DNA of 42,015 nucleotides, from the IMG/VR virus record IMGVR_UViG_2537562195_000009; one strand, given 5' to 3'. The DNA is from a virus. Lineage: Duplodnaviria; Heunggongvirae; Uroviricota; Caudoviricetes. Below, piece by piece: positions 3,239 to 40,489 of this stretch. Under the pieces are notes generated by a model. The model did not search any database, was not told where the DNA came from, and saw nothing but the letters and a program-made list of their open reading frames with translations. The translations under genes were made by a program, and so were the position numbers. Position 1 is the stretch's first letter; each line of letters begins with the position of its first letter.

Positions 3239-3601
3239 TTAACGACCTGCTGCGCGGAGTTTTCCGTCAGGTTCACCGGCAAGAGTCAGTAATTGTCCCT
3301 GGTCTTCCTGCAGAATAGTCAGGCGACCACCGCGATTGACATACATCGGCGTTTCGGTGGTGTCTTCTTCGGAAATTTTCCCGCGGTTAGTCGGGCGGAC
3401 ATATGAGAGTTTGTGTTTGATTTTCACACGGTTCTCATCAAACGGTTCGATTTCCAGATTGAGTGAGACCTTCCCTTTGGTTTTCGTGTTCATCACACCG
3501 GAAGCGACTTCACTGAGAACTGCGCCGATTTTGGTTTCAAATACGCCGCCGTCCAGCTCCCCGATAAATGCCTGCACATCAGTACTGCGTTCGCTAGCCA
3601 T
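3239..3601 (-). CDS. hypothetical early protein (YfdP-like)
   Basis: Longer ORF 3239..3919 trimmed to third ATG (MASERSTDV...) which has a GAGGAG RBS; 120 aa. Confidence 0.5.
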   Translation of the reverse strand: MASERSTDVQAFIGELDGGVFETKIGAVLSEVASGVMNTKTKGKVSLNLEIEPFDENRVKIKHKLSYVRPTNRGKISEEDTTETPMYVNRGGRLTILQEDQGQLLTLAGEPDGKLRAAGR

Positions 3602-4038
3602 TTTGCTGCTCCTCATCATATCGACCCTGCAAGGTCGGTTGGTTTCTCCACAAAACAGAGAAGAACACCTGCGGTGGCAGCCGCCCGGATGGATTGGGTT
3701 ATGAGCCCGTCGTCCGGTGATGCTCTTCTCTGTTTTGTAAAAAGAGCGGTACCAGCCGGAAGCAAGGGTACAAACTGGTACAGCCAGGACTACACACAGC
3801 ATAAAGTTGTGGTGCCGGGTGCCTCCCGGTGCCTGGCGAAGGTTGCACACCAGGCGGGTGGGTATCCACAGAAGGTCGACTGTCAGCCTCAACCTTAACC
3901 CGCGTGCGCTGAGCCGCATTCACCACAACGCTAAGGATTCTCTCTGGTTGAAAATACTTAGCTGTTATGTGCCTGTCTTTTCACCACTTCAGGCTCGGTG
4001 GTATCCTTTTAAGCCCGTATACATAAAAGGAAAATCAA

Positions 4039-4874: not shown

Positions 4875-4911
4875 TTGCGAGATATGCAAGTGATATTTGC
4901 GAGATATGCAA
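4875..4911. promoter_or_regulatory. candidate OL operators: two copies of TTGCGAGATATGCAA spaced 22 bp
   Basis: Exact 15-bp direct repeat at 4875..4889 and 4897..4911 in the region between cI and the leftward early genes; TTGC..GCAA dyad ends. Confidence 0.5.
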
Positions 4912-4965
4912 ATTTATAGGTAATAAAAAGCCACCTTTCGGTGGCCGATGGATGGGATATTGAGG

Positions 4966-5658
4966 TTAATTATGTCTCTTAAGGGTTTGCGACTGACTGA
5001 TTAAGACCTTTCCAAAGACCATGAATCGGTGTTCGTTTTCGCTAGTAATTCCCCATTCACGGTAAATCTGGTTATCAGAAATCACCAGCAGTTTGTCAGG
5101 AATCATTTGAAGTCTTTTAACGTATATTTTGTCATCAAAACCAAAGACATATATACCATCACCATCAAACTGATTGATGCTGACATCAACGAAGATGAGA
5201 TCTCCGGGCTCAATGGTTGGACACATACTGTCCCCACGAACGTTGATAACTTTGATGTGATTGGCTGGTCGTCCGCCGAACATTGATACAGCATTATCAG
5301 TTCTGTATTCGATGGCATGAATCACATCAATGACATCACCGCCCTGGATAAGGCCATTTCCCGCACTGGCACTGATATCCAGCATTTCAATACGGAACAC
5401 ATCCTTCACCTGCGCAACATCCTCATTATTACTGTTTTTATATACAGTATTACTTTTGTGGGCAGAGGTAAAGAGATCAGCAATATCAACACCTAAGCTC
5501 CTGGCAATATTACTCAGTGTTTGTTCGGTAAATTGTTTTTGCTTACCCGTTTCTAAGCGCGAGATGTTCGCCGCATCTACTCCTATCGCTTCAGCGAGAT
5601 CGGCGATTTTCATGTTCTTCGCTTGGCGAAGTTGTCTGACTCGGTTTCCTATGTTCAT
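4966..5658 (-). CDS. cI: CI-type repressor (XRE HTH N-terminal plus S24 LexA-like peptidase C-terminal)
   Basis: 230 aa; N-terminal HTH (IADLAEAIGVDAANISRLETGK); C-terminal S24 fold with VRGDSMCPTIEPGDLIFVD and KIYVKRL; divergent from a cro-like gene. Confidence 0.85.
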   Translation of the reverse strand: MNIGNRVRQLRQAKNMKIADLAEAIGVDAANISRLETGKQKQFTEQTLSNIARSLGVDIADLFTSAHKSNTVYKNSNNEDVAQVKDVFRIEMLDISASAGNGLIQGGDVIDVIHAIEYRTDNAVSMFGGRPANHIKVINVRGDSMCPTIEPGDLIFVDVSINQFDGDGIYVFGFDDKIYVKRLQMIPDKLLVISDNQIYREWGITSENEHRFMVFGKVLISQSQTLKRHN

Positions 5659-5755
5659 GCGTTTATTACATTTCTTTATTGCGTGATAAGCAAATCAACT
5701 TGCGCAAAATAATTGCGTGAAATAACATGCATAACGCGCAATATTTGGAGGGCAT
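5659..5755. promoter_or_regulatory. candidate OR/PR/PRM divergent control region with operator-like motifs
   Basis: 97-bp gap between divergent cI and cro; contains TTGCGTGATAAGCAA (5679..5693) and related TTGCG...GCAA motifs resembling the OL repeat. Confidence 0.5.
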
Positions 5756-6016
5756 ATGCAATCACCATTACGAAATGTGCGTAAGGCGCATGGTTTCACT
5801 TTGCAGCATGTTGCTGCGGGTGTTCAAGTCAATCCAGCGACGTTGAGTCGTATTGAGAGGCTGGAGCAGATTCCATCTATCGAGCTTGCAGAACGTTTAG
5901 CCAATTTTTTTAAGGGTGAAGTCAGCGAAATGCAGATTCTTTATCCGGCACGTTTTCAATCTAGCCAAAACCAGAATGGGTTTAAACCACAGGAACAGGA
6001 GGTGAACCGTGGGTAA
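5756..6016 (+). CDS. cro: Cro-like HTH regulator
   Basis: 86 aa, GGAGG RBS, HTH (FTLQHVAAGVQVNPATLSRIER), divergent from cI. Confidence 0.75.
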   Translation: MQSPLRNVRKAHGFTLQHVAAGVQVNPATLSRIERLEQIPSIELAERLANFFKGEVSEMQILYPARFQSSQNQNGFKPQEQEVNRG

Positions 6017-6560
6017 GCATCACTGGAAAGTAGAAAAACAGCCTGAGTGGTACGTGAAAGCTGTCAGAAAAACTATCGCAGCGTTGCCGGGGGGGTACGC
6101 TGAAGCTGCTGACTGGCTGGATGTAACAGAGAACGCATTATTTAACCGCCTTCGTGCCGATGGCGATCAGATTTTCCCGCTGGGATGGGCAATGATTTTG
6201 CAACGTGCTGGTGGAACTCACTTCATTGCTGACGCTGTGGCGCAGTCTGCAAATGGCGTCTTTGTGTCTCTTCCTGATGTCGAGGATGTGGACAACGCCG
6301 ATATCAACCAACGCCTGCTGGAGGTCATTGAACAGATCGGCAGTTATTCAAAACAGATTCGTTCAGCAATTGAAGACGGTGTAGTGGAACCGCATGAGAA
6401 GACAGCAATTAACGATGAGCTGTACCTCTCAATTTCGAAGCTGCAGGAGCATGCAGCACTGGTCTACAAAATCTTTTGCGTTTCAGAAAGTAGTGACGCC
6501 CGCGAGTGTGCAGCTCCGGGCGCCGTGGCGTGTCGTGACTGTGGAGAAACTAACGCATGA
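6009..6560 (+). CDS. CII-like regulatory protein (CP76 family, YmfL-like)
   Basis: 183 aa, GTG start with AGGAGG RBS, directly after cro. Confidence 0.5.
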
Positions 6561-6895
6561 ACAGTTTAACAACACACTACCGTCGCTCGCAACTGATTGC
6601 GCTTCCTGTACCGGGTGGAAAAGCGAAGGTGGAGTATTGCTATGCAGTAAATGTACCAGGTGACAGGGAAATTGTAACCCACAGCTTTGCAGAGTGGGCT
6701 GTGGGTGATTTCAACCGGCAGAAGGAGACAGTCCTTTGCGACAAGTTAACCGCTGGTTCAAAGATCACTACGGAGTGCCCGTCAGAGTCATTCGTTGGGA
6801 GCCGGAAACACAACGGGTTATCTACCTCCGTGAAGGCTATGAGCATGAGTGCTTCAGCCCGCTCGAACAGTTTCGTCGTAAATTCAGGGAAATAG
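6557..6895 (+). CDS. YmfM-like protein (112 aa)
   Basis: ATGA overlap with upstream gene; length and position match e14 ymfM as recalled; 3' part also has a protein-like alternative frame (see findings). Confidence 0.45.
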
Positions 6896-6904
6896 AGGTC
6901 GGTC

Positions 6905-7846
6905 ATGAGCACTAAATTAACCGGCTATGTATGGGATGGTTGCGCTGCGTCAGGCATGAAATTATCCAGCGTGGCAATTATGGCCCGCCTGGCTGATTTC
7001 AGTAATGACGAAGGTGTGTGCTGGCCATCAATTGAAACCATTGCCCGTCAGATTGGCTCGGGGATGAGTACCGTCAGAACGGCTATCGCACGGCTGGAAG
7101 CAGAAGGCTGGTTAACGCGTAAGGCGCGTCGCCAGGGTAACCGCAATGCGTCGAATGTTTATCAGCTTAACGTTGCGAAGCTTCAGGCAGCGGCATTTTC
7201 TCAACTGTCAGATTCTGACCCGTCAAAATCTGACGCATCAAAATCTGACCCGTCAAAATTTGATGCGTCGAAATCTGGCAAAAAAGCGGGTTTTCACCCG
7301 TCAGAATCTGGCGGGGATCCGTCAGTAAAATCAAAACATGATCCGTCAGATAAAAAAACTTCTCGTCCGGACGCTTCGCAACCGGACACGCAGACGGCTG
7401 AACAGGAGTTTTTAACTCGCCATCCTGATGCGGTTGTATTCAGCCCTAAAAAGCGCCAGTGGGGAACGCAGGATGATTTGACCTGCGCACAGTGGCTCTG
7501 GAAAAAAATCATCGCCCTGTACGAGCAGGCCGCCGAATGTGACGGCGAGGTGGTTCGTCCCAAAGAACCGAACTGGACAGCCTGGGCAAACGAAATTCGC
7601 CTGATGTGTGTGCAGGATGGTCGTACTCATAAACAAATCTGCGAGATGTACAGCCGCGTCAGCCGCGATCCGTTCTGGTGCCGTAACGTGCTCAGCCCGT
7701 CGAAGCTGCGGGAAAAATGGGATGAGCTTTCCCTGCGCTTATCGCCGTCCGTCAGCACGTACACCGAAAAACGCGAAGACCCGTACTTCAAATCCAGTTA
7801 CGACAATGTGGACTACAGCCAGATCCCGGCAGGATTCAGGGGGTGA
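6905..7846 (+). CDS. replication initiator (lambda O-like) with internal origin repeats
   Basis: 313 aa; N-terminal HTH-like region (SIETIARQIGSGMSTVRTAIARLEAEGWL); central SK(S/F)D(P/A) peptide repeats encoded by DNA iterons; GAGGT RBS. Confidence 0.7.
   Translation: MSTKLTGYVWDGCAASGMKLSSVAIMARLADFSNDEGVCWPSIETIARQIGSGMSTVRTAIARLEAEGWLTRKARRQGNRNASNVYQLNVAKLQAAAFSQLSDSDPSKSDASKSDPSKFDASKSGKKAGFHPSESGGDPSVKSKHDPSDKKTSRPDASQPDTQTAEQEFLTRHPDAVVFSPKKRQWGTQDDLTCAQWLWKKIIALYEQAAECDGEVVRPKEPNWTAWANEIRLMCVQDGRTHKQICEMYSRVSRDPFWCRNVLSPSKLREKWDELSLRLSPSVSTYTEKREDPYFKSSYDNVDYSQIPAGFRG
7214..7273. repeat. iteron array (4 x 15 bp, with degenerate copies to about 7350), candidate replication origin
   Basis: tctgacccgtcaaaa / tctgacgcatcaaaa / tctgacccgtcaaaa / tttgatgcgtcgaaa in tandem inside the O-like gene, then further CCGTCAGA-containing copies and an A-rich stretch. 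Confidence 0.6.
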
Positions 7847-10562: not shown

Positions 10563-11427
10563 GTGACCGTGAGAGCACTACTGACCCCTGAAATTGCCCC
10601 GCGTATGGGGATCGTATTGTTCAGGCCCGGTTCAGAGCTGATGCCCCTGTTTATGCAGGGGCGTGTACTGCTGGAGCCTGAGCCGGAGCATTATTCATCT
10701 TTCGCCAGTGGTGCCGTTCCGGCGGCATCACAACCGCTGGCGGATGATCCTGCCGTTCAGGCCGTGTTCCGCAATGAGGCAGTGATCCGTCGTGCTGGTG
10801 GCGTGGAATGTCTTGAAAGCTGGTTACTTCGTGAAAAAGGCTGCCAGTGGCCTCATTCCGACTGGCACAGCGAGAACATGACCACAATGCGACACGCTCC
10901 GGGCGCAATCCGTCTGTGCTGGCACTGCGATAACCAGCTGCGCGATCAGTTCACGGAACGGCTGGAATCAATGGCAACGGATAACTGTGCCCGCTGGGTG
11001 TTGTCTGTTGTGCGTCGGGATCTCGGTTTTGATGACAGTCACGTTGTGACAATGCCGGAACTGTGCTGGTGGCTGATTCGTAATGATCTGGCGGATGCCT
11101 TACCGGAAAGTGCAGCCCGTAAGGCACTGAGATTACCGAAGCCTGTTGTGCCGTCTGTTACCCGGGAAAGTGACCTTGTGCCTTCGGTTCCTGCCACTAG
11201 CATCATCCAGGATAAGGCGAAAAAGGTGCTGGCGCTGAAAGTGGATCCGGAGTCGCCGGAGTCTTTTATGTTACGCCCAAAACGTCGCCGCTGGGTTAAT
11301 GAAAAGTACACGCGCTGGGTTAAGACACAGCCGTGTGCATGTTGTGGAAAGCCTGCTGATGATCCCCACCACCTGATAGGCCACGGTCAGGGTGGGATGG
11401 GTACAAAAGCGCATGACCTCTTTGTGT
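10563..11427 (+). pseudogene. DUF968-family phage gene, 5' portion, interrupted by IS66-family insertion
   Basis: GTG-start ORF whose reading frame runs into the IS end at 11428; with the IS and one duplication copy removed the frame continues into 14126..14264 (…DLFV|LPLCRKHHDELH…). Confidence 0.75.
11420..11427. repeat. target-site duplication (CTTTGTGT), left copy
   Basis: Identical 8-mer immediately flanks both IS ends. Confidence 0.8.
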
Positions 11428-11457
11428 GTAAGCGGCTCGCCAGAACCGTCTTAATAT

Positions 11458-13028
11458 TTACTGAGAGCTCAGATCAACTTTCCAGGGCAACAGATCGCGT
11501 ACCCGATTTGCCGGCCAGTCCTGGATATGCTCAATGACGTAACGCAGCCATTTTTCTGGCTCTACATTGTTCAGACGGCATGTGCCGATCAGCGAGTACA
11601 ACACCGCCGCATGTTCGCCACCGCTGTCGGAACCCGCGAACAACCAGTTCTTCCGGCCCACGGCCACACCCCGTAAGGCGTTCTCTGCGATGTTGTTGTC
11701 GATTTCCACCCAGCCATTGCTGCAGTACACGTTCAGGGCCTCCCACTGTTTCAGCAGGTATGCGAACGCTTTCGCCGTATCCGAGTGACGCGACAGGGTT
11801 TTCATCTGAGTCTGTATCCAGTCATACAGTGACTGCATCAGTGGCGCAGCTCTGGCTTTTCTTGCCGCCAGACGCTGTTCTGCTGTACATCCCCGGACTT
11901 CTGCCTCTATGGCATACAGTTCACCGATACGCTGCAGGGCTTCTGTGGTGATGTCGGTGGGCACTCTTGCATGCACATCGTGGATTTTTCTCCGGGCATG
12001 AGCCATACACGCGGCTTCCGTTATTCTGCCGGATTCGTATAACGCCCGGTAACCACCGTAAGCATCGGCCTGAAGCACTCCGCTGTAACCGGCCAGGTGA
12101 TTCTGTGGATGGATACCTTTCCGGTCCGGACTGTACGCGAACCAGACCGCCGGGGGCATCTGTGAACCGGCGTTACGGTCATCACGGACGTAGACCCACA
12201 GCCGGGCGGTCCGGGTTTTACCGCTGCCCGGCTCCTGGACCGGACGGGGATATCATCAGCATGGACTTTACCGGGCATCAGCACATACTGGCGCAGGACG
12301 TCATACAGCGGCTCCAGCAGTTCAGCAACGGCACCTGTCCAGCGCCCCAGTGTGGCACGGCTCAGCTCCACTCCCTGACGACGGTATATTTCTGACTGAC
12401 GGTATAACGGCAGATGGTCTGCATATTTCCCGGTGACAACATGGGCCAGAAGCCCCGCTCCGGCATAGCTGCGTACAATGGGTTTTGAAGGCACCGGCGC
12501 CTGCACGATATGGTCACAACGGCAACAGGCCAGTTTCGGACGTTGTGTTTCGATAACCTTAAAGGCGCTGCTGATAAGCTCCAGTTGCTCTGACACATCA
12601 CATCCCAGTGGACTGAGTTCACCACCACAGGCCGGACAGCATTCCTCTTCCGGCCGGATGACCCGGGTTTCACGGGGAAGTGAGGCCGGTAACGGTTTAC
12701 GGGCTGAAGACTGGCGCAGGGCGGATGGCAGTGCCGGGTCATATTGCTCACCCAGCGTTTCCGCCATTTCTTCCTGAAGTGCGCTGATTCGCTCCTGTGC
12801 TTCCTGTATCTGTCGTTCGGTTTTTGCGCGAAGTTTTTCTGAGCTTTTACCGAACTGCATGCGCTGCAGTTTTGCAACCAGCGCCTTCAGCCGGTTGATT
12901 TCGGAAGCATAAGCCGCCACCCGCTGTGAGAGCAGGCGGTTGTATTCAGCCATCTGGCGGATGGTGTCCTGTTGCGTCTGCAACAGTGCCCGCAGGCGGG
13001 CATTCTCATGAGCAAGTGAGGTATCCAT
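11458..13028 (-). pseudogene. tnpC: IS66 transposase TnpC, frameshifted into two ORFs (12021..13028 and 11458..12159)
   Basis: N-terminal ORF (zinc-finger CPACG...CCRC) and C-terminal ORF (DDE region) are in different frames; frame breaks near 12230..12250 (…DDIPV then out-of-frame text). Confidence 0.8.
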
Positions 13029-13047
13029 ATCCTCACTTTACAACGGG

Positions 13048-13395
13048 TTATATGCGGATTCCAGCGCGTTCCGTTCGTTTCGGGTGCTTCCAGTTGATGC
13101 CCTCAAGAAGCATGGATAACTGAGCCGGAGTAAGGTGAACCTTACCATCGCGGGTGACCGGCCAGACGAAGCGGCCCCGCTCCAGGCGTTTGGTGAAGAG
13201 GCACAGTCCGTCGCTGTCAGCCCACAACACTTTTATCTGGTCACCCCGGCGTCCGCGGAAGATGAACAGGTGTCCGGAGAACGGGTCATCCTTCAGGACG
13301 TTCTGAACTTTTGAGGCCAGGCCGTTAAAGCCATTTCGCATGTCGGTGATGCCGGCAACCAGCCAGATACGCGAACCTGCAGGGAGAGATATCAT
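13048..13395 (-). CDS. tnpB: IS66 Orf2 (TnpB)
   Basis: 115 aa, typical IS66 TnpB sequence (MISLPAGSRIWLVAGITDMRNGFNGLA…). Confidence 0.85.
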   Translation of the reverse strand: MISLPAGSRIWLVAGITDMRNGFNGLASKVQNVLKDDPFSGHLFIFRGRRGDQIKVLWADSDGLCLFTKRLERGRFVWPVTRDGKVHLTPAQLSMLLEGINWKHPKRTERAGIRI

Positions 13396-14072
13396 CAGTG
13401 GCTGCTCCCTTTCATTTCGCGGATAAGTGTCTGTAATAACGCCGGCGTCAGTTTACCTTTAAGCCTGAGAGTTCCGGTCGGCAGAACCAGCTCACAGCAC
13501 AGACTGTCGGACGGTGTATTTATCTGCTCTGGTTCCTGTGCCGGAGCCGGGATTTTATTATCCGGCTCCGGCGTTAACGTCACGGGAAGCAGTGCAGGCA
13601 TATTTTTTCCGGAAGGCAGCAGGCCACCTTTCCGGTATTGATGGCGCCAGTTGAAGAGCAGGTTATCGTTGATTCCGTTTTCACGGGCGATCTGCGCCAC
13701 ACAGGCTCCGGGCTGCAGTGACTGCTCCACTAAGGCGATTTTAAACGCATAAGGAAAATTAGGCCGCCGGGGACGTTTTTTTACCACCGGGACTTCGGAC
13801 ATAACGGTGTTTTCAGTAAGTACGACAGGTACTGTGGAGGCACTCCCGTAAAGACAGGCATCAAGTTCCCGCTCCGACATACTTGCGGGCAGAGGCCATG
13901 AAAGGCCAGCTTTGCGGAAGCGCACGAACATACCACAAACTGTTGATTTTGGTACGCCCAGGCGACGTCCGGCCACAATCCGTGGTAAATGTTCTTCAAA
14001 GTGAAGACGTAAAGCTTCGGTGATCCAGGTCCGGTATTCCATACGATAGTGTCCATTAAAAATGATGGACAT
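13395..14072 (-). CDS. tnpA: IS66 Orf1 (TnpA) with N-terminal HTH extension
   Basis: C-terminal half has the IS66 Orf1 pattern (KKRPRRPNFPYAFKIALVEQSLQPGACVAQIARENGINDNLLFNWRHQYR); true start may be internal. Confidence 0.7.
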   Translation of the reverse strand: MSIIFNGHYRMEYRTWITEALRLHFEEHLPRIVAGRRLGVPKSTVCGMFVRFRKAGLSWPLPASMSERELDACLYGSASTVPVVLTENTVMSEVPVVKKRPRRPNFPYAFKIALVEQSLQPGACVAQIARENGINDNLLFNWRHQYRKGGLLPSGKNMPALLPVTLTPEPDNKIPAPAQEPEQINTPSDSLCCELVLPTGTLRLKGKLTPALLQTLIREMKGSSH

Positions 14073-14125
14073 TATTTTTGTGGAGCCGGAGGAAACAGAC
14101 CAGACGGTTCAGATGAGGCGCTTAC

Positions 14126-14133
14126 CTTTGTGT
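14126..14133. repeat. target-site duplication (CTTTGTGT), right copy
   Basis: Identical to 11420..11427. Confidence 0.8.
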
Positions 14134-14264
14134 TGCCTTTGTGCAGAAAGCATCACGACGAGCTGCATGCGGATACCGTGGCATTTGAAGAGAAGTATGG
14201 CTCCCAGCTGGAGCTGATATTTCGTTTTATCGATCGTGCGCTGGCAATTGGCGTGCTGGCCTGA
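14126..14264 (+). pseudogene. DUF968-family gene, 3' remnant after the IS
   Basis: In-frame continuation of 10563..11427 once the IS is removed; the track ORF 14049..14264 is a chimera of IS end plus this remnant. Confidence 0.75.
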
Positions 14265-14281
14265 TTTTGTGGAGAAAGTTG

Positions 14282-14629
14282 ATGCGTGATATGTATGAAG
14301 TATTGGACCGCTGGGGAGCATGGGCTGCAGCAGATAACAGTGGCGTGGACTGGCAGCCGATAGCAGCAGGCTTCAAGGGGCTTTTACCTCATGGCAAAAA
14401 GTCCCGGATTCAGTGTGATGATGATGAGGGGCTCATGATCGATGGGTGCGTAGCTAGATTAAGAAAGTACAAACCAGAAGAGTATGAACTTATCGTTGCC
14501 CATTTTGTTATAGGAGTATCAATACGTACCATTGCAAAGAAAAGGAAATGTTCAGATGGGACTGTCAGAAAAGAATTGCAAGCCGCAATTGGATTTGTGG
14601 AAGGCGTATTTAGTATTTTAAATATGTAA
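14282..14629 (+). CDS. late-gene antiterminator Q-like protein
   Basis: 115 aa from ATG 14282 (GGAG 7 nt upstream); last early gene before the lysis region; family assignment from memory of Q-like proteins. Confidence 0.55.
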   Translation: MRDMYEVLDRWGAWAAADNSGVDWQPIAAGFKGLLPHGKKSRIQCDDDEGLMIDGCVARLRKYKPEEYELIVAHFVIGVSIRTIAKKRKCSDGTVRKELQAAIGFVEGVFSILNM

Positions 14630-14644
14630 GGGGCGGTGCCCCTT
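14628..14644. terminator. GC hairpin at the convergent Q / MBL gene junction
   Basis: AAGGGGC-ggt-GCCCCTT overlaps both stop codons; weak U-tract on either strand. Confidence 0.4.
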
Positions 14645-15734
14645 ATAAGCAAACAGCAGCGTAATGTGTTTCAACCTTAGGACTAGACGTTAAGCAATTA
14701 CTAACAGCAACTATTCCAAATTTATTGTTATTATTTGAAAATGAAACTGAACTTTTCATCTTCGCTAATATGCTCCGTGCTTCAGCAATCGCAGGTGATT
14801 TTTCTTGAGCGTTATCACTTTTAGGCATCGATGTACAGTATAATGCTGATGATTTTGATTTGTAGAGGTCGATCATATCCTGCCGTGGTAGTGATGATTT
14901 ATCATAAGTGGTTAAAATCGAAATAGGGTCTTTTTTGATTAGCTTGTTCCATGTTTCCTCATGAAAGCCTGTTTGGGAACCGTGGTGTGGAAGTTTGAAA
15001 ATACCTGCTAAGTTTGGTTCTGGACGATTTATTGCATTGCAAACGGAATTCCATCCAGTGTTTTTACTAACTTCTAAATCTGCGCCTAATAATACTTCAT
15101 TATTTTCTGATGTTGGAGAGCATATTCTGATTACAACGCAGTAGTGATTAGGATTAACTAATTTAGCAGACATGGCTATTTCGCTAAAATTTGATGATAA
15201 TTTTGTAGAGTTTGCGAATTCAAGATCAGAGTTTGTTATATCCATATCAGAAGGCGATAACGAATGTACTTGAATATTCTCGCTGCTTTTGAATAGTATG
15301 CAGTCTTTTTTTGCATGGACAAGACGATCATTTTTGTGCAAATCATAGAATAAAGACATGACCTTGTTTATTTCTTTAGTTTTTGCCATATCCTCACCAT
15401 TAACACTTAGTGCATTAATATATCCTCTAAATTCAGATGTGTTCAATGCTGCGCTAATTACAACTTTTGCATTTTTGCAACTATTAATAATTTCGGCTAT
15501 CCCTTTAATATGATCATCGTGAAAATGACTAATGACTATCAGTTTTACTTCATCTTGTGGATTAACACCTTTTTCTTTCAGATAATCTAATGCTGCGGGG
15601 CGTTTATTATCATTTAAACAGGAATCAATAATCATCCATTCATTTAACCCAAGACGAACGGCAATTGATTCGCCAATACCTTTACCAAAAACAATTGTTT
15701 CACAGATAGAGTTTTGAACAGTAGGCACCTGCAT
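14643..15734 (-). CDS. MBL-fold metallo-hydrolase, probable nuclease-type; third gene of the AT-rich island
   Basis: 363 aa; HxHxDH motif (VISHFHDDHIKG) and downstream KLPHHGSQ motif as in ComEC/beta-CASP-type MBL enzymes; no signal peptide; low GC. Confidence 0.7.
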   Translation of the reverse strand: MQVPTVQNSICETIVFGKGIGESIAVRLGLNEWMIIDSCLNDNKRPAALDYLKEKGVNPQDEVKLIVISHFHDDHIKGIAEIINSCKNAKVVISAALNTSEFRGYINALSVNGEDMAKTKEINKVMSLFYDLHKNDRLVHAKKDCILFKSSENIQVHSLSPSDMDITNSDLEFANSTKLSSNFSEIAMSAKLVNPNHYCVVIRICSPTSENNEVLLGADLEVSKNTGWNSVCNAINRPEPNLAGIFKLPHHGSQTGFHEETWNKLIKKDPISILTTYDKSSLPRQDMIDLYKSKSSALYCTSMPKSDNAQEKSPAIAEARSILAKMKSSVSFSNNNNKFGIVAVSNCLTSSPKVETHYAAVCL

Positions 15735-15757
15735 TCACCGTATTGCGTAATTTCTAA

Positions 15758-16330
15758 TTATTGTTTAAAAATTCTTCTTAGGCGAAATTCGGATACTCTT
15801 TTTTCTTGTCCAAATAAAGTTTTTTCCATACCAACATACCAATAAAAAATAGCGTTTTCGACAAGTTTTTGTTGATCGCTTTTACTAAATTCATCTGAAG
15901 AGAACGTTATCTCATCAATGAATTCATGAGAGTTTATATCATATACTCTAGCATGTATTTCTTTATTTGATTTCATATTGACAATTTTGTCAATTATACC
16001 ATAAGTATCTAATGCCTTTTCAAGAAAGGTTATTTTTTCTTTAAGTCTTGCCTTGAGTTTTTTATGCTGAGTTCTATTTTTCACTCCTTTTTGTGTAGAT
16101 GGGAATGGTTGCGGAGTAGGTATTTCAATTATATTTGTTGAATATTTTGTGCTGCAAGTTTCTTGCTGCTGTTCAAATGTTTCAGAATAATTTTCAAAAC
16201 CTGTCTTAATTATACAGGAAAGAGTTATGTTGTGGGTCTTTACAAATGTTTCAATGTTTTTTTCTTTTTTTGTTACGCAACGTGTATTACTAAGGCTGGA
16301 AGAATTTTCAGGATAGGTTAATATATTCAT
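15758..16330 (-). CDS. hypothetical protein (190 aa); second gene of the AT-rich island
   Basis: 4-nt overlap with upstream gene and 23-nt gap to the MBL gene suggest an operon; no recognisable motif. Confidence 0.5.
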   Translation of the reverse strand: MNILTYPENSSSLSNTRCVTKKEKNIETFVKTHNITLSCIIKTGFENYSETFEQQQETCSTKYSTNIIEIPTPQPFPSTQKGVKNRTQHKKLKARLKEKITFLEKALDTYGIIDKIVNMKSNKEIHARVYDINSHEFIDEITFSSDEFSKSDQQKLVENAIFYWYVGMEKTLFGQEKRVSEFRLRRIFKQ

Positions 16331-17043
16331 GATAGAATCCGCTTAAACATTTGTTCATGGCTGAGGATATCATTCTTAATTGCTGCGGAAATATGTTTTT
16401 GAATTATATTTGGGAGTAATTGAGTGAATGCAACAGCGTCACGAATATCTTTCAAAGCTAGATCGTGATTGTATTGAACATTTAAACCAAATACATCTGG
16501 ACTAACTTTTCTATACGAAGCATAAGAGACATTGATAGCCTCTTTGTAAATTGATTTATCTTCCTTGTTAGAGTTTTCTATTGCAATGACTAAATTTCTC
16601 ATCCCATAATGATATTCAACTTCATCCTGAAGTATTTCTGATTTATTGTGTTCTTGCCAATAAATTTTGGGGACTAATGCATCTCCTAACTGATTCCAGT
16701 TGGTTTCATTATTAAAATGATAATCAAAAAGGGTGTTTATTCCAACAGCTTGTGTCTCAGAATGAGGAAACATAGAAAATATTGATGACACTAAGTCTGC
16801 CAAGGAATTTTCAAGCCCTGTTTTTTTCAGTTGAAATACTACTTTTGTTGGTATGCACGTAATCTCAATCCAACCGTAATCTGTTGTTATTGAATCACCA
16901 TCAAAAGTTGTGTTTGAATTTGCTATATCTTCCTCTCTTAGCAAATCGTATCTTCTAAACCATTCAGATGAAAACATCAATGGAGTAATGATGTTAGAGA
17001 TCCATACAACATTAATCGTATGCTTAATAAGTTTGAAAGTCAT
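16327..17043 (-). CDS. hypothetical protein (about 238 aa); first gene of the AT-rich island
   Basis: Track ORF 16327..17082; start moved to second ATG (MTFKLIK) which has a GAGGG RBS; no recognisable motif. Confidence 0.5.
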   Translation of the reverse strand: MTFKLIKHTINVVWISNIITPLMFSSEWFRRYDLLREEDIANSNTTFDGDSITTDYGWIEITCIPTKVVFQLKKTGLENSLADLVSSIFSMFPHSETQAVGINTLFDYHFNNETNWNQLGDALVPKIYWQEHNKSEILQDEVEYHYGMRNLVIAIENSNKEDKSIYKEAINVSYASYRKVSPDVFGLNVQYNHDLALKDIRDAVAFTQLLPNIIQKHISAAIKNDILSHEQMFKRILS

Positions 17044-17248
17044 AAATTGTTCTTGGCCCTCAGAATGAAAACCTAAGTGCATTTAGGCATAGCTACCGCA
17101 CGACTGTTTTTAATAAAACAATCCGATTGATAGCTATAACATATTGATGTCTAACGTTATAGTGCATAAGAAACATAGCAAAAATCTAACGCGTACGCAA
17201 AAATTCTTGTAATCTGTTAAGAGTGGTTACTTTGCCACGCAGATTAAC

Positions 17249-17275
17249 CCCGCCGATGAGCGGGTTTTGTTGTTT
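17249..17275 (+). terminator. tR'-like intrinsic terminator upstream of the lysis genes
   Basis: CCCGC-cgatga-GCGGG stem followed by TTTTGTTGTTT, about 150 nt upstream of the holin start. Confidence 0.35.
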
Positions 17276-17418: not shown

Positions 17419-17745
17419 ATGCCTCATAACCCAAATACCTGGCTGGAGTTGGTCCAGAGCTGGTGGCGTGGAGACACACCGCTGGGCGCAGTGATTATGT
17501 CGATCGTTATGGCTGGCTTGCGCATTGCCTATTTTGGCGGTGGTGGTGGCTGGAAGCGAAAAACGCTCGAGATTTTGCTCTGCGGCGCTTTGACGCTGAC
17601 CTTTGCATCCGCTCTTGAGTATGTCGGATGGCCTAAATCGCTTTCTGTTGCCATTGGTGGCGGTGTTGGGCTGATCGGTGTCGATGCTATTCGTGGGGCT
17701 GCAATGCGAGTAATCGGTAACAAATTTGGTAGCACGAAGGAGTAA
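17419..17745 (+). CDS. holin
   Basis: 108 aa, first gene of lysis cassette; hydrophobic segments (AVIMSIVMAGLRIAYFGGGGGW, LCGALTLTFASALEYVGW); lambda S-like architecture. Confidence 0.7.
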   Translation: MPHNPNTWLELVQSWWRGDTPLGAVIMSIVMAGLRIAYFGGGGGWKRKTLEILLCGALTLTFASALEYVGWPKSLSVAIGGGVGLIGVDAIRGAAMRVIGNKFGSTKE

Positions 17746-36381: not shown

Positions 36382-37164
36382 ATGCATCGTATAGACACGA
36401 AAACCGCGCAGAAGGATAAGTTCGGCGCGGGTAAGAACGGTTTTACCCGTGGTAACCCCCAGACCGGCACACCTGCCACCGATCTGGATGATGACTACTT
36501 TGACATGTTGCAGGAAGAACTTTGTAGCGTGGTGGAGGCCTCCGGTGCCAGCCTGGAGAAAGGGCGGCATGACCAGCTACTTACCGCGCTTCGCGCGCTG
36601 CTGTTAAGCCGCAAGAATCCGTTTGGCGATATCAAATCGGATGGCACGGTGAAAACGGCTCTCGAAAACCTTGGTTTGGGAGAAGGCTCAGCATTACCCG
36701 TTGGTGTGCCTGTTCCGTGGCCTTCAGCCACTCCGCCAACAGGCTGGCTGAAATGCAACGGAGCAGCTTTTTCTGCTGAAGAATACCCGGAACTGGCAAA
36801 GGCTTATCCGACAAATAAATTACCTGATTTACGCGGTGAGTTTATTCGTGGCTGGGATGACGGACGTGGAGTGGATAACGGAAGGGGATTATTAACGCTT
36901 CAGGACGGTGCGATTGTCAGTCATAACCACTATTGGGGAATCTGGACTTCACGAACTAACGACCAGACTCTGGGAAGTTTTACAGGCACCACGATTTTAA
37001 AACAAATCACGCCCCTGTCTCCGGCCATTGACTTCGATAATTACCCAATTCCCAACCCGGCTATTACAGAGGGTGGTGTTGTTGCGGCAACGACTAAACC
37101 TGCAGGTGCGAATGAAACACGCCCACGAAATGTCGCTTTTAACTATATTGTGAGGGCTGCATAA
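36382..37164 (+). CDS. tail fibre protein; constant N-terminus plus variable C-terminus inside an invertible segment
   Basis: 260 aa; crossover site lies in codons ENLGLGEGS (36661..36690); C-terminal GEFIRG...[13 protein letters not shown] collar-like motif. Confidence 0.8.
36662..36686. repeat. invertase crossover site, left (gix/pix-like)
   Basis: TCGAAAACCTTGGTTTGGGAGAAGG; inverted copy at 38516..38539 shares the TTGGTTTGGGAGAAG core in the same codon phase. Confidence 0.75.
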
Positions 37165-37766
37165 TGAATAACGCAGAATTAAACAGTGAATTAATTGCCA
37201 CTATGGCAGGAGAAATTACTGTTTATAACTTTGACGTCATGAGTCGGGAGTATATTTCAGCTTCAACTGAATATCTTGCTGTTGGTGTCGGCATTCCGGC
37301 ATATTCCTGTTTAGATGCTCCAGGCACCTACAAAGCTGGTTATGCAATCTGCCGCTCTGCAGATTTTAACTCATGGGAATATGTACCAGACCATCGCGGT
37401 GAAATCGTCTATAACACCGAAACGGGAGACGCCAAAGAAATCACAACTCCGGGTGATTACCCCGAAAAAACAACCACTATCGCCCCGTTAACGCCATACG
37501 ATAAATGGGATGGTGAGAAATGGGTGACGGATACTGAGACACAGCATAGCGCCGCAGTAGACGCGGCAGAAGCACAACGTCAGTCACTGATTGATACTGC
37601 AATGGCTTCCATTAGTCTGATTCAACTGAAATTGCAGGCCGGGCGGAAGCTGATGCAGGCAGAGACCACCCGACTTAACACTGTGCTGGATTACATTGAC
37701 GCGGTGACGGCAACAGATACCAGTACCGCGCCGGATGTCATCTGGCCTGAACTGCCGGAGGAGTAG
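37164..37766 (+). CDS. tail fibre assembly protein (Tfa)
   Basis: 200 aa; conserved Tfa C-terminus (…LDYIDAVTATDTSTAPDVIWPELP). Confidence 0.8.
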   Translation: MNNAELNSELIATMAGEITVYNFDVMSREYISASTEYLAVGVGIPAYSCLDAPGTYKAGYAICRSADFNSWEYVPDHRGEIVYNTETGDAKEITTPGDYPEKTTTIAPLTPYDKWDGEKWVTDTETQHSAAVDAAEAQRQSLIDTAMASISLIQLKLQAGRKLMQAETTRLNTVLDYIDAVTATDTSTAPDVIWPELPEE

Positions 37767-38169
37767 GCCATTCAATATCTGGCGCACTGGAAGTATCGAC
37801 CAGTTCCAGTGCGTCCAGATAATCCAGCCACAAATTATATTGCGCCAGTTCCTCACCTTTCAGACGACCAATCGCCGCTTTACCAGGCCATTGTTTACTG
37901 TTCATGTATTCGTTGGCCTGATTAACTAATCGCTGTTTATTTGATTCAGCGATTGAGATTAATTCTTCGCTGGTAAGTGGTGGCGCATCCTGCCATGCTG
38001 GAAAACCATTTTTATCTGAACCAAGTATTTTACCATCAGGCCATGCAACTCCTGCGAACTCAGAATAAATAGTAAAGTTTATTTTCGTAGCGTTCTCAGG
38101 AATGGTTTGGCTATCTGGTGAAATATAAAATCCCGAATCAGAGGGATTAAAATAATATGTCTTTTCCAT
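37738..38169 (-). CDS. alternative tail fibre assembly protein (Tfa'), inverted orientation
   Basis: 143 aa; same Tfa C-terminal motif (…LDYLDALELVDTSSAPDIEWPTPP). Confidence 0.8.
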   Translation of the reverse strand: MEKTYYFNPSDSGFYISPDSQTIPENATKINFTIYSEFAGVAWPDGKILGSDKNGFPAWQDAPPLTSEELISIAESNKQRLVNQANEYMNSKQWPGKAAIGRLKGEELAQYNLWLDYLDALELVDTSSAPDIEWPTPPAVQAR

Positions 38170-38171
38170 AG

Positions 38172-38527
38172 TTAATACCCCACAGCCATCCAGTAAATTG
38201 AATTTGTTGTAGCAGAAGTGTAAGTAAATCTGATTTTAGTTCTGTTGGTACTTCCAATATCAAAGCCCACAGAACGGGCAGAAGGATCATTAGTTGAAAT
38301 AAGAGCGTTTACCGAACGACAAGCAGCAGGGAAAGCTACAGGTAATGTTATATCAACTGTTCCAACACTTCCTCCGGTTGGTGAGACAGAAAAACTCCCC
38401 CATTGAATAATCATCCCCCCAGGTAATTTCTGGTATCCATTGGCGGTCAATGAGTTACCAAAGCTGTTCATATCCGGTACCTGATTTTCTCCTGTCCCCA
38501 CATTCCTCTTTGCCGCTTCTCCCAAAC
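38172..38527 (-). CDS. alternative tail fibre C-terminal cassette, expressed only after inversion
   Basis: Minus-strand ORF whose 5' end contains the inverted crossover core (…NVGLGEAAKR…) in frame with the constant fibre N-terminus. Confidence 0.7.
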
Positions 38528-38539
38528 CAACGTTTATGA
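38516..38539. repeat. invertase crossover site, right (inverted copy)
   Basis: Reverse complement TCATAAACGTTGGTTTGGGAGAAG matches the left site at about 21 of 24 positions. Confidence 0.75.
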
Positions 38540-39257: not shown

Positions 39258-40091
39258 ATGCATGTTTTTGATAATAATGGAATTGAACTGAAAGCTGAGT
39301 GTTCGATAGGTGAAGAGGATGGTGTTTATGGTCTAATCCTTGAGTCGTGGGGGCCGGGTGACAGAAACAAAGATTACAATATCGCTCTTGATTATATCAT
39401 TGAACGGTTGGTTGATTCTGGTGTATCCCAAGTCGTAGTATATCTGGCGTCATCATCAGTCAGAAAACATATGCATTCTTTGGATGAAAGAAAAATCCAT
39501 CCTGGTGAATATTTTACTTTGATTGGTAATAGCCCCCGCGATATACGCTTGAAGATGTGTGGTTATCAGGCTTATTTTAGTCGTACGGGGAGAAAGGAAA
39601 TTCCTTCCGGCAATAGAACGAAACGAATATTGATAAATGTTCCAGGTATTTATAGTGACAGTTTTTGGGCGTCTATAATACGTGGAGAACTATCAGAGCT
39701 TTCACAGCCTACAGATGATGAATCGCTTCTGAATATGAGGGTTAGTAAATTAATTAAGAAAACGTTGAGTCAACCCGAGGGCTCTAGGAAACCAGTTGAG
39801 GTAGAAAGACTACAAAAAGTTTATGTCCGAGACCCGATGGTAAAAGCTTGGATTTTACAGCAAAGTAAAGGTATATGTGAAAACTGTGGTAAAAATGCTC
39901 CGTTTTATTTAAATGATGGAAACCCATATTTGGAAGTGCATCATGTAATTCCCCTGTCTTCAGGTGGTGCTGATACAACAGATAACTGTGTTGCCCTTTG
40001 TCCGAATTGCCATAGAGAATTGCACTATAGTAAAAATGCAAAAGAACTAATCGAGATGCTTTACGTTAATATAAACCGATTACAGAAATAA
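39258..40091 (+). CDS. mcrA: McrA-like HNH nuclease (Type IV modification-dependent restriction)
   Basis: 277 aa, low GC; C-terminal HNH motif (CENCG…EVHHVIPLSSGG…NCVALCPNCH); pin-mcrA-icd-fragment order matches the e14 right end as recalled. Confidence 0.7.
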   Translation: MHVFDNNGIELKAECSIGEEDGVYGLILESWGPGDRNKDYNIALDYIIERLVDSGVSQVVVYLASSSVRKHMHSLDERKIHPGEYFTLIGNSPRDIRLKMCGYQAYFSRTGRKEIPSGNRTKRILINVPGIYSDSFWASIIRGELSELSQPTDDESLLNMRVSKLIKKTLSQPEGSRKPVEVERLQKVYVRDPMVKAWILQQSKGICENCGKNAPFYLNDGNPYLEVHHVIPLSSGGADTTDNCVALCPNCHRELHYSKNAKELIEMLYVNINRLQK

Positions 40092-40324
40092 AATTATTTA
40101 TTAAAGTCACATTTAAGACGTAATACCCTACAGGGTAAAATTTTTCTCTGATCTTAACTTCTGCAAATGTTAACTGCTATTTTTATGCTAAAAATGGTTA
40201 TCAAAACTCAAAAACACATGTTTATAATCAATGAGTTATAGAAATGCTAAGGGCTAATGAGTTATATGCAAATTAGTAAAATTATGTTGCTATGTCAAAT
40301 AGTTACGATTTAGTCATCTAACTA

Positions 40325-40489
40325 ATGTTACGCCATATGGGCTGGACTGAAGCCGCAGACCTGATTGTTAAAGGTATGGAAGGCGCAATCAATGCGAAGA
40401 CCGTAACCTATGACTTCGAGCGTCTGATGGAAGGCGCTAAACTGCTGAAATGTTCAGAATTTGGTGATGCGATCATCAAGAACATGTAA
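40325..40489 (+). pseudogene. icdC: isocitrate dehydrogenase 3' fragment (icdC-like), prophage right attachment junction
   Basis: Translates as [54 protein letters not shown], matching the recalled Icd C-terminus; an in-frame stop lies immediately upstream, so no icd body. Confidence 0.8.

Follow-up and report, generated by a model that had tools for sequence, protein, structure and literature searches.

An ISCro1-family insertion interrupts a predicted DUF968 nuclease gene upstream of the Q antiterminator gene in an Escherichia coli prophage

Results

A lambdoid prophage carries an ISCro1-family element in its nin-like region

The window, that is, the whole 42,015-nucleotide stretch analysed here (IMG/VR record IMGVR_UViG_2537562195_000009), derives from a lambdoid E. 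coli prophage with a contractile tail (SfII/mEp460-like), whose integration site adjoins icd in its closest relatives. In its nin-like region lie the two parts of a DUF968 gene, an insertion sequence (IS) between them, and the Q gene:

10569..11427, + strand: DUF968 / His-Me finger (HNH) nuclease gene, 5' part, with the CxxC...HH half-motif (Pfam, RefSeq annotation)
11420..11427: target-site duplication, left copy, 8 bp, CTTTGTGT (sequence)
11428..14125, genes on the - strand: complete IS element, ISCro1 family (IS66 family), 2,698 bp (nucleotide identity and profile matches)
11428..11451: terminal inverted repeat, tnpC end, GTAAGCGGCTCGCCAGAACCGTCT (sequence)
11458..13028, - strand: tnpC, DDE transposase, 1,571 nt (1,572 nt in intact copies), frameshifted (ORFs, Pfam, alignment)
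11458..12159, - strand: tnpC downstream ORF, 233 aa (ORF list)
12021..13028, - strand: tnpC upstream ORF, 335 aa, authentic for residues 1-262 (ORF list)
12242..12243: frameshift site, GG here and GGG in every intact copy compared (alignment)
13048..13395, - strand: tnpB, 115 aa, IS66 Orf2-like accessory protein (Pfam, NF033819)
13395..14072, - strand: tnpA, 225 aa, IS66-like accessory TnpA, E109A allele, G at 13747 (NF038385)
14102..14125: terminal inverted repeat, tnpA end, reverse complement GTAAGCGCCTCATCTGAACCGTCT (sequence)
14126..14133: target-site duplication, right copy, 8 bp, CTTTGTGT (sequence)
14134..14264, + strand: DUF968 gene, 3' part, with the CxxHH half-motif, LPLCRKHHDELH (sequence, Pfam)
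14282..14629, + strand: Q-family antiterminator, 115 aa, intact (PF06530, phrog_79)

The sequence-only reading had placed an IS66-family element at 11428..14125, and its boundaries, inverted repeats, target duplication and gene profiles all agree with this. The repeats at both ends start with GTAAGCG, and hence with the GTAA expected of the family, and match at 20 of 24 positions; the 8-bp direct duplication CTTTGTGT on either side is perfect and has the length described for IS66 targets (PMC6778807). The genes tnpA, tnpB and tnpC follow one another on one strand, as in the three-ORF organization of the family, where tnpC is the presumed transposase (PMC6778807). NCBIfam profiles match above their curated cut-offs for TnpA (NF038385, 3.7e-86), TnpB (NF033819, 5.2e-38) and, with the frameshift repaired, the transposase (NF033517, 8.2e-143), and Pfam recognizes TnpB_IS66, DDE_Tnp_IS66, zf-IS66 and LZ_Tnp_IS66.

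Along its whole length, the element shares 99.9% identity with intact 2,699-bp copies from E. coli, and we assign it to ISCro1 on the basis of copies with the RefSeq annotation "IS66-like element ISCro1 family transposase" rather than of the ISfinder type sequence. The two differences from intact copies are one absent G and a T to G change at 13747. The latter gives the E109A allele of tnpA, which also occurs in other strains, there next to an intact tnpC; the TnpB protein is identical to that translated from an intact copy (annotated WP_000624622.1). At least 80% of the element is present in 2,182 records, and what lies here is an already catalogued, common IS behaving in a known way.

The insertion splits a single predicted nuclease gene

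Removal of the element together with one copy of the duplication restores a continuous 996-nt frame encoding 329 or 331 residues, bearing out the earlier proposal of one uninterrupted DUF968 gene. The shorter product starts at 10569, following the RefSeq annotation of an identical intact gene, with an alternative GTG at 10563. The restored protein matches Pfam DUF968 (PF06147) at 3.5e-81 and 271.7 bits (cut-off 27.8) and, at residues 253-310, HNHc_6 at 26.9 (cut-off 26.6), a stretch that spans the insertion point. It carries the motif CACCGKPADDPHH...CRKHH, whose halves are separated by the IS in the window. DUF968 is placed in group 7 of the His-Me finger nucleases, along with YdfU (PMC5714182), and both marks of this YdfU-like group, a PF06147 score above the gathering threshold and the complete CxxC...HH...CxxHH pattern, are present after restoration. 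In the window, the interrupted frame instead continues into the IS as far as a stop at 11537. Because the element splits the HNH zinc-finger/catalytic motif, the predicted nuclease gene is inactivated.

We also considered whether DUF968 is naturally two genes with an IS between them, a possibility raised at the outset to which we now give practically no credence; nothing turned up in its favour. Every relative among the matches listed is annotated with one gene of 329 aa, the phrog_96 profile ("HNH endonuclease") is covered end to end (positions 1-334 of 334), and the DUF968 and HNHc_6 matches both cross the junction. The Pfam, PHROGs and empty-site results together refute it.

The rest of the prophage matches IS-free relatives

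Seven complete E. coli genomes carry the restored 1,995-nt empty site, with a single CTTTGTGT, at 100% identity, and 1,144 genomes have 80% or more of it in one continuous place, where all matches listed have the annotation KilA-N / DUF968 / Q. A search of 5,426 complete E. coli genomes for the junction between the IS and DUF968 returned no match covering it. Given flanks that share 100% identity with empty sites and an IS with only two differences from intact copies, the insertion appears to be recent. Over 39.3 kb, this otherwise intact prophage departs from the IS-free prophage of RM10466 in 15 substitutions and one invertible segment, without any indel, and because the remainder is essentially identical to IS-free copies, the insertion looks incidental as well as recent. 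The suggestion that it fits prophage domestication is without support in a prophage otherwise so little changed. One further candidate difference, a 226-aa ORF at 3239..3919 annotated as "frameshifted" in RM10466, was dismissed, as the two translations are identical.

A one-base deletion truncates TnpC in the deposited sequence

As first read, tnpC is split into two frames, visible as the 335-aa and 233-aa ORFs on the - strand. The lesion was originally taken for a 5-bp insertion near 12240. Alignment to three intact copies shows instead that a G3 run has lost a single base (on the coding strand, CCC has become CC), and restoring one G yields a 523-aa TnpC identical to the intact transposase WP_000381335.1; together, these results exclude the 5-bp insertion. 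In the deposited sequence, TnpC is truncated after residue 262 of 523 and the uninterrupted tnpC of an autonomous IS66-family element is missing, so the copy would be unable to supply its own transposase and, if the sequence is correct, is a defective member of its family. Across 5,426 complete E. coli genomes, no match to the deletion reached 99% identity, the best being 98.6%, i.e. one gap, and it is absent from all 5,018 places in such genomes.

A second copy of the IS, at a plasmid-like locus in the same assembly (GCA_000215245.2), has both the tnpC deletion and the A109 allele of tnpA, and the two copies differ from each other only at a position 42 nt away from the IS end. In a gene-position index, the truncated product called at 335 aa occurs only in GCA_000215245.2, at the second copy; for the window's own locus, the index has the same ORF with a later start, giving 310 aa. 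Plasmid p65-4 of strain 4 carries an IS at the same plasmid-like site with the A109 allele but an intact GGG, and over 4.7 kb the tnpC deletion is the only gap between the two plasmid loci. From these alignments, the plasmid-like site is ancestral. The deletion common to both copies can be explained by mobilization in trans, gene conversion or an artefact of repeat consensus.

In the first case, the frameshift would be real and older than the insertion, and the defective copy would have been moved by an IS66-family transposase supplied in trans, leaving it non-autonomous but not immobile. The shared deletion and A109 allele, the ancestral plasmid-like site with its intact counterpart on p65-4, and the fresh 8-bp duplication and unaltered ends of the prophage copy are all consistent with this, as is the frequent presence of several ISCro1- or IS679-family copies per E. 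coli genome (median 2, up to 33 places). Gene conversion after transposition or a repeat-consensus artefact would, however, look alike, and we know of no report of trans-mobilization in the IS66 family. We regard this course of events as tentative and on the unlikely side; if true, it would show an IS66-family element that has lost its autonomy still moving in nature.

Rather more doubtful is an artefact of sequencing or of repeat consensus as the source of the frameshift, with the prophage copy really intact and autonomous. Such an error could arise because the homopolymer is buried deep within a repeated element and the assembly is a draft: what is missing is one nucleotide of a three-base run, the change is confined to one assembly (0 of 5,018 places), and both copies share it while differing only at a position 42 nt from the end that junction-spanning reads can reach, a pattern expected when the interior of a repeat is given a shared consensus. 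Against this, the assembly is not generally prone to indels, with none in 39.3 kb relative to RM10466 and only the one gap in 4.7 kb relative to p65-4, and three-base runs are seldom miscalled at consensus depth. The earlier verdict that the copy is "probably immobile" needs narrowing to "not autonomous": both of its ends match those of intact copies exactly, and the same allele sits at a second site. The fresh duplication and this second copy speak only indirectly for transposition activity.

Q is intact but lies downstream of the element

The Q gene itself is undamaged, with matches to PF06530 (1.7e-45, 154.2 bits, cut-off 26) and to phrog_79, "anti-termination protein Q-like" (3.6e-46). The distance of about 150 bp first estimated between IS and Q proves to be 156 bp, measured to the ATG at 14282, and a GGAG Shine-Dalgarno-like motif 8 nt before this ATG is left untouched. 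Upstream of the holin gene at 17419, a promoter-like site (17136-17163) and a terminator-like site (17249-17264) were found as consensus matches only; this pair is probably the target of Q.

Polarity on Q is plausible from the arrangement of the genes. An IS stretch of 2.7 kb, which would be transcribed in antisense to the IS genes, now parts Q from the early-right operon, and beyond the premature stop at 11537 the transcript would cross a stretch of IS without any frame from the phage operon. The likeliest result would be Rho-type polarity with less read-through into Q, which may in turn weaken or delay late-gene expression on induction. Just past the premature stop, the + strand is C-rich and G-poor: 100-nt windows that begin at 11528-11628 have a C/G of 1.35-1.67. 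Within the IS, 7 terminator-like hairpins lie on the + strand, which is not above chance (4.7 +/- 3.0 in shuffled sequence).

A minority possibility that we take seriously is that Q and the late genes are not affected at all, either because early-right transcription is resistant to termination or because Q has its own promoter, so that only a dispensable nin-region nuclease is lost. In lambda, the region from P to Q is dispensable, as the nin5 deletion shows, and N overcomes polarity when an IS has inserted into an early operon. Polarity would be suppressed here if a processive antiterminator like lambda N modifies the early-right transcript, and Q retains its GGAG motif. However, the first leftward genes, compared with PHROGs, belong only to families of unknown function and include no recognized N homologue, and Rfam RNA and tRNA scans of the whole window gave no match to a known antitermination RNA or any other, though such absences count only lightly; and no sigma-70-like match faces Q on the + strand between 13900 and 14290, a range that includes the interval between IS and Q, in a standard or a relaxed (8/12) scan.

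Outward promoter activity is known in some IS families. The converse proposal, that the element brings an outward or hybrid promoter and drives Q, and through it the late genes, independently of the repressor-controlled early operon, draws on such cases, which are discussed in PMC8764528. Activation is nevertheless less likely than polarity, and we consider it very improbable: the scan of 13900..14290 yielded no promoter-like match on the + strand even at 8/12, in the afa case ISCro1 decreased downstream transcription instead of increasing it (PMC8764528), and constitutive Q would be expected to turn on the lysis genes and hurt the lysogen.

Discussion

The best explanation of the locus, to which we assign a probability of roughly 0.9, is a recent ISCro1-family insertion that inactivates a predicted DUF968 nuclease gene and likely reduces read-through into Q. 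A full-length element transposed into the gene and made the family's usual 8-bp duplication in doing so. A more elaborate scenario, in which a frameshifted ISCro1 was moved in by a helper in trans and, with Q cut off, left an otherwise intact, inducible prophage with inefficient lysis and particle production, strikes us as improbable. For annotation, the locus is best described as one DUF968/HNH gene broken by a defective ISCro1, not as two small genes and split transposase ORFs. Should the polar effect on Q be true, the lysogen would give less phage than its IS-free relatives, which is of local interest for strain comparison. Beyond annotation, the significance is slight, and no new question is opened.

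Finally, we would like to place the insertion beside known systems. ISCro1 itself has the same tnpA-tnpB-tnpC order, the same ends and the same 8-bp duplication, and annotated copies share 99.9% full-length identity with the one described here, which differs in being one G short in tnpC, with the transposase truncated, and in carrying E109A in tnpA. The element was named from Citrobacter rodentium and is widespread in E. coli. IS66 of the Agrobacterium Ti plasmid and IS679 of the EPEC plasmid pB171 likewise have tnpABC and an 8-bp duplication, but are different family members; Han et al. reportedly found in 2001 that all three IS679 ORFs are required for transposition. ISCro1 is known to have expanded, with most copies situated on other mobile elements (PMC3072379).

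The one published expression test found for the same IS upstream of a gene comes from E. coli ST131, where ISCro1 upstream of afaA reduced the transcript by 2.5 log2 and also lowered promoter-reporter activity (PMC8764528). There, the IS sits 440 bp upstream, within a promoter/regulatory region and not inside an operon. Parallels in lambda are the polar IS insertions in its early operons and, for position, the ninR region (orf, ninG/rap, rusA-type resolvases), which likewise has the replication genes on one side and Q on the other. The neighbours here, a RusA resolvase and recombination/nuclease genes, are of the kind found in lambda ninR (PMC4118853, PMC5714182), whereas the gene hit by the insertion is DUF968 (YdfU-like) and not NinG.

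An ISCro1 copy within the DUF968 gene

The DUF968 gene upstream of Q is interrupted by an IS66-family element, whose anatomy and footprint are as follows.

Insertion element and target-site duplication (window coordinates)
11428..14125, genes on the - strand: IS element, 2,698 bp
Left terminal end of the IS: GTAAGCGGCTCGCCAGAACCGTCT
Right terminal end of the IS, reverse complement: GTAAGCGCCTCATCTGAACCGTCT
11420-11427 and 14126-14133: 8-bp direct duplication CTTTGTGT, abutting both IS ends

The two ends match at 20 of 24 positions, with the first seven bases identical. The - strand encodes TnpA (225 aa), TnpB (115 aa) and TnpC, the last in two ORFs (335 and 233 aa), and Pfam and NCBIfam profiles recover the expected IS66 domains in all four; every defining feature of the family that was tested is present except an uninterrupted tnpC. 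Over its full length, the element is 99.9% identical to numerous copies from E. coli plasmids and chromosomes labelled ‘IS66-like element ISCro1 family’, and at least 80% of it is held in 2,182 records.

Removal of the IS and one duplicate yields an unbroken 996-nt frame, whose product matches Pfam DUF968 (3.5e-81), covers phrog_96 (‘HNH endonuclease’) end to end and has a weaker HNHc_6 match over residues 253-310. The element, terminal repeats, duplication and restored frame are all seen in the sequence, as the sequence-only reading had described them. The restored 1,995-nt KilA-N/DUF968/Q stretch occurs with 100% identity in seven complete genomes with an empty site (RM10466, RM9245, O113:H21 FWSEC0010, strain 4, strain 10, JNE120393 and JNE131328), at least 80% of it lies in one continuous place in 1,144 genomes, and DUF968 is annotated as a single gene in every relative among the matches listed. 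DUF968 belongs to group 7 of the His-Me finger nucleases, as does YdfU of the Qin prophage (PMC5714182), and DUF968 genes occur in the company of recombination genes, in the interval from the replication genes to Q (PMC4118853). The insertion point lies between ...CACCGKPADDPHH...HDLFV and LPLCRKHH... of the protein; consequently, the IS cuts the zinc-finger/HNH motif in two, and the gene is inactivated.

The tnpC lesion and the mobility of the element

The split of TnpC had been put down to a 5-bp insertion. Aligned to three intact copies, the window IS has the same ends and just two differences: a GGG run short of one G at 12242-12243, and a G in place of T at 13747, which results in TnpA E109A. 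TnpC reads true for 262 residues and then continues out of frame for 73, and putting one G back restores the exact intact 523-aa transposase. The frameshift is therefore a 1-nt deletion instead, and the 5,018 places matched in complete genomes all lack it. The A109 tnpA allele is found with an intact 523-aa TnpC in further assemblies.

Contig AEZW02000002.1 of assembly GCA_000215245.2 matches the window with 100% identity over the 12,969 nt compared, and a 151-kb contig of this assembly contains another copy.

Second ISCro1 copy
L006 (a locus from contig AEZW02000003.1, GCA_000215245.2), 4904..7601

This copy features the same tnpC deletion and the same 13747G. It is flanked by unmatched 8-bp sequences (GCTCAGCC vs AATTATAT) and adjoins Tn3 and IS3 fragments, in a plasmid-like site common to plasmid p65-4 of strain 4, whose own copy has 13747G with GGG intact. 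Three readings of the shared deletion remain: a defective copy was mobilised in trans, the two copies were homogenised by gene conversion, or the repeat interior is a shared consensus in the assembly. The copies differ in a single base, at window 11469; it is just 42 nt away from the end of the IS, a distance that reads crossing the junction can cover. A random homopolymer error as the source of the deletion is at odds with an assembly otherwise indel-free over 39.3 kb, but this absence of indels does not argue against a collapsed repeat. ‘Probably immobile’, the earlier verdict, should therefore be changed to ‘not autonomous’, provided that the deposited sequence is correct: tnpC is frameshifted, but the ends match those of intact copies, and the deletion allele is also present at a second site in the same assembly.

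Age of the insertion and state of the prophage

Compared with the IS-free prophage of strain RM10466, the window as a whole differs by 15 substitutions and not a single indel; besides the IS, an inverted Pin-type segment is all that sets the two apart in structure. The IS/DUF968 junction is absent from the complete E. coli genomes searched, and an IS-DUF968 fusion protein is recorded in GCA_000215245.2 only. Together, these observations mark a recent, strain-specific insertion in an otherwise intact prophage; no sign of decay was seen that would justify the term prophage domestication. In RM10466, intE/xisE adjoin icd, and the far end carries pinE, mcrA and an icd fragment.

Features towards the prophage end
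36666..38535: invertible tail-fibre segment of the Pin type, with 20-nt inverted repeats at its borders and a pinE-like recombinase gene beside it; its orientation is opposite to that in RM10466, whose prophage is otherwise identical
39258..40091: mcrA, at the prophage end (projected from RM10466 annotation)
~40322..40489: icd fragment (projected likewise)

The presence of mcrA and the icd fragment indicates that the e14/icd integration module is in use, yet with a full phage genome aboard. A related prophage in E. coli strain ES8 (NZ_CM184330.1, 1296813..1300133) has an IS150 in the KilA-N/DUF968/Q neighbourhood; IS insertion near Q is therefore not unique to the window's strain.

Inferred consequences for Q

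The Q-family antiterminator gene (PF06530, 1.7e-45) lies downstream of the IS, with its start at ATG 14282, 156 bp from the IS end, as RefSeq annotates the identical gene in relatives. Because the IS genes are directed away from Q, early-right transcription has to traverse the element antisense. The interrupted DUF968 frame ends at 11537, leaving ~2.6 kb without a frame inherited from the phage operon, and 100-nt windows starting at 11528-11628 have C/G ratios of 1.35-1.67, a C-rich, G-poor composition that suits Rho loading. A promoter scan of 13900-14290 returned no promoter-like site towards Q; hairpin terminator matches within the IS were at chance level only. The insertion could leave Q unaffected if the phage uses processive antitermination; neither an N-like protein (PHROGs on the first leftward genes) nor a known antitermination RNA (Rfam on the window) was recognised. 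In ST131, ISCro1 insertion upstream of afaA reduced transcription (PMC8764528), and this case, together with the antisense transit, the frameless stretch, the C-rich windows and the lack of a Q-facing promoter, leads us to favour reduced Q expression over activation.

Elements between Q and the holin gene
14643..17082, - strand: three-gene cassette, antisense to the phage operons, encoding an MBL-fold protein and two proteins of unknown function
17136-17264, + strand: promoter-like site ATAACA-16-TATAGT, followed by a GC-rich hairpin and T run, ~150 bp upstream of the holin gene

The promoter-like/terminator-like pair is probably the site of Q action, comprising a candidate late promoter and Q-controlled terminator. 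The MBL-fold protein has weak PADLOC matches to DRT-associated MBL (1.6e-11) and LmuA (3.3e-07), and the cassette may be a moron or defence cargo.

Relation to known systems

Overall, the main points of the sequence-only reading hold, while the nature of the frameshift had been misjudged and the biology over-read. Neither the IS element nor the family of the target gene nor this type of event is new, and close relatives of the prophage, such as vB_EcoM-689R6, SfII and mEp460, have been isolated as phages.
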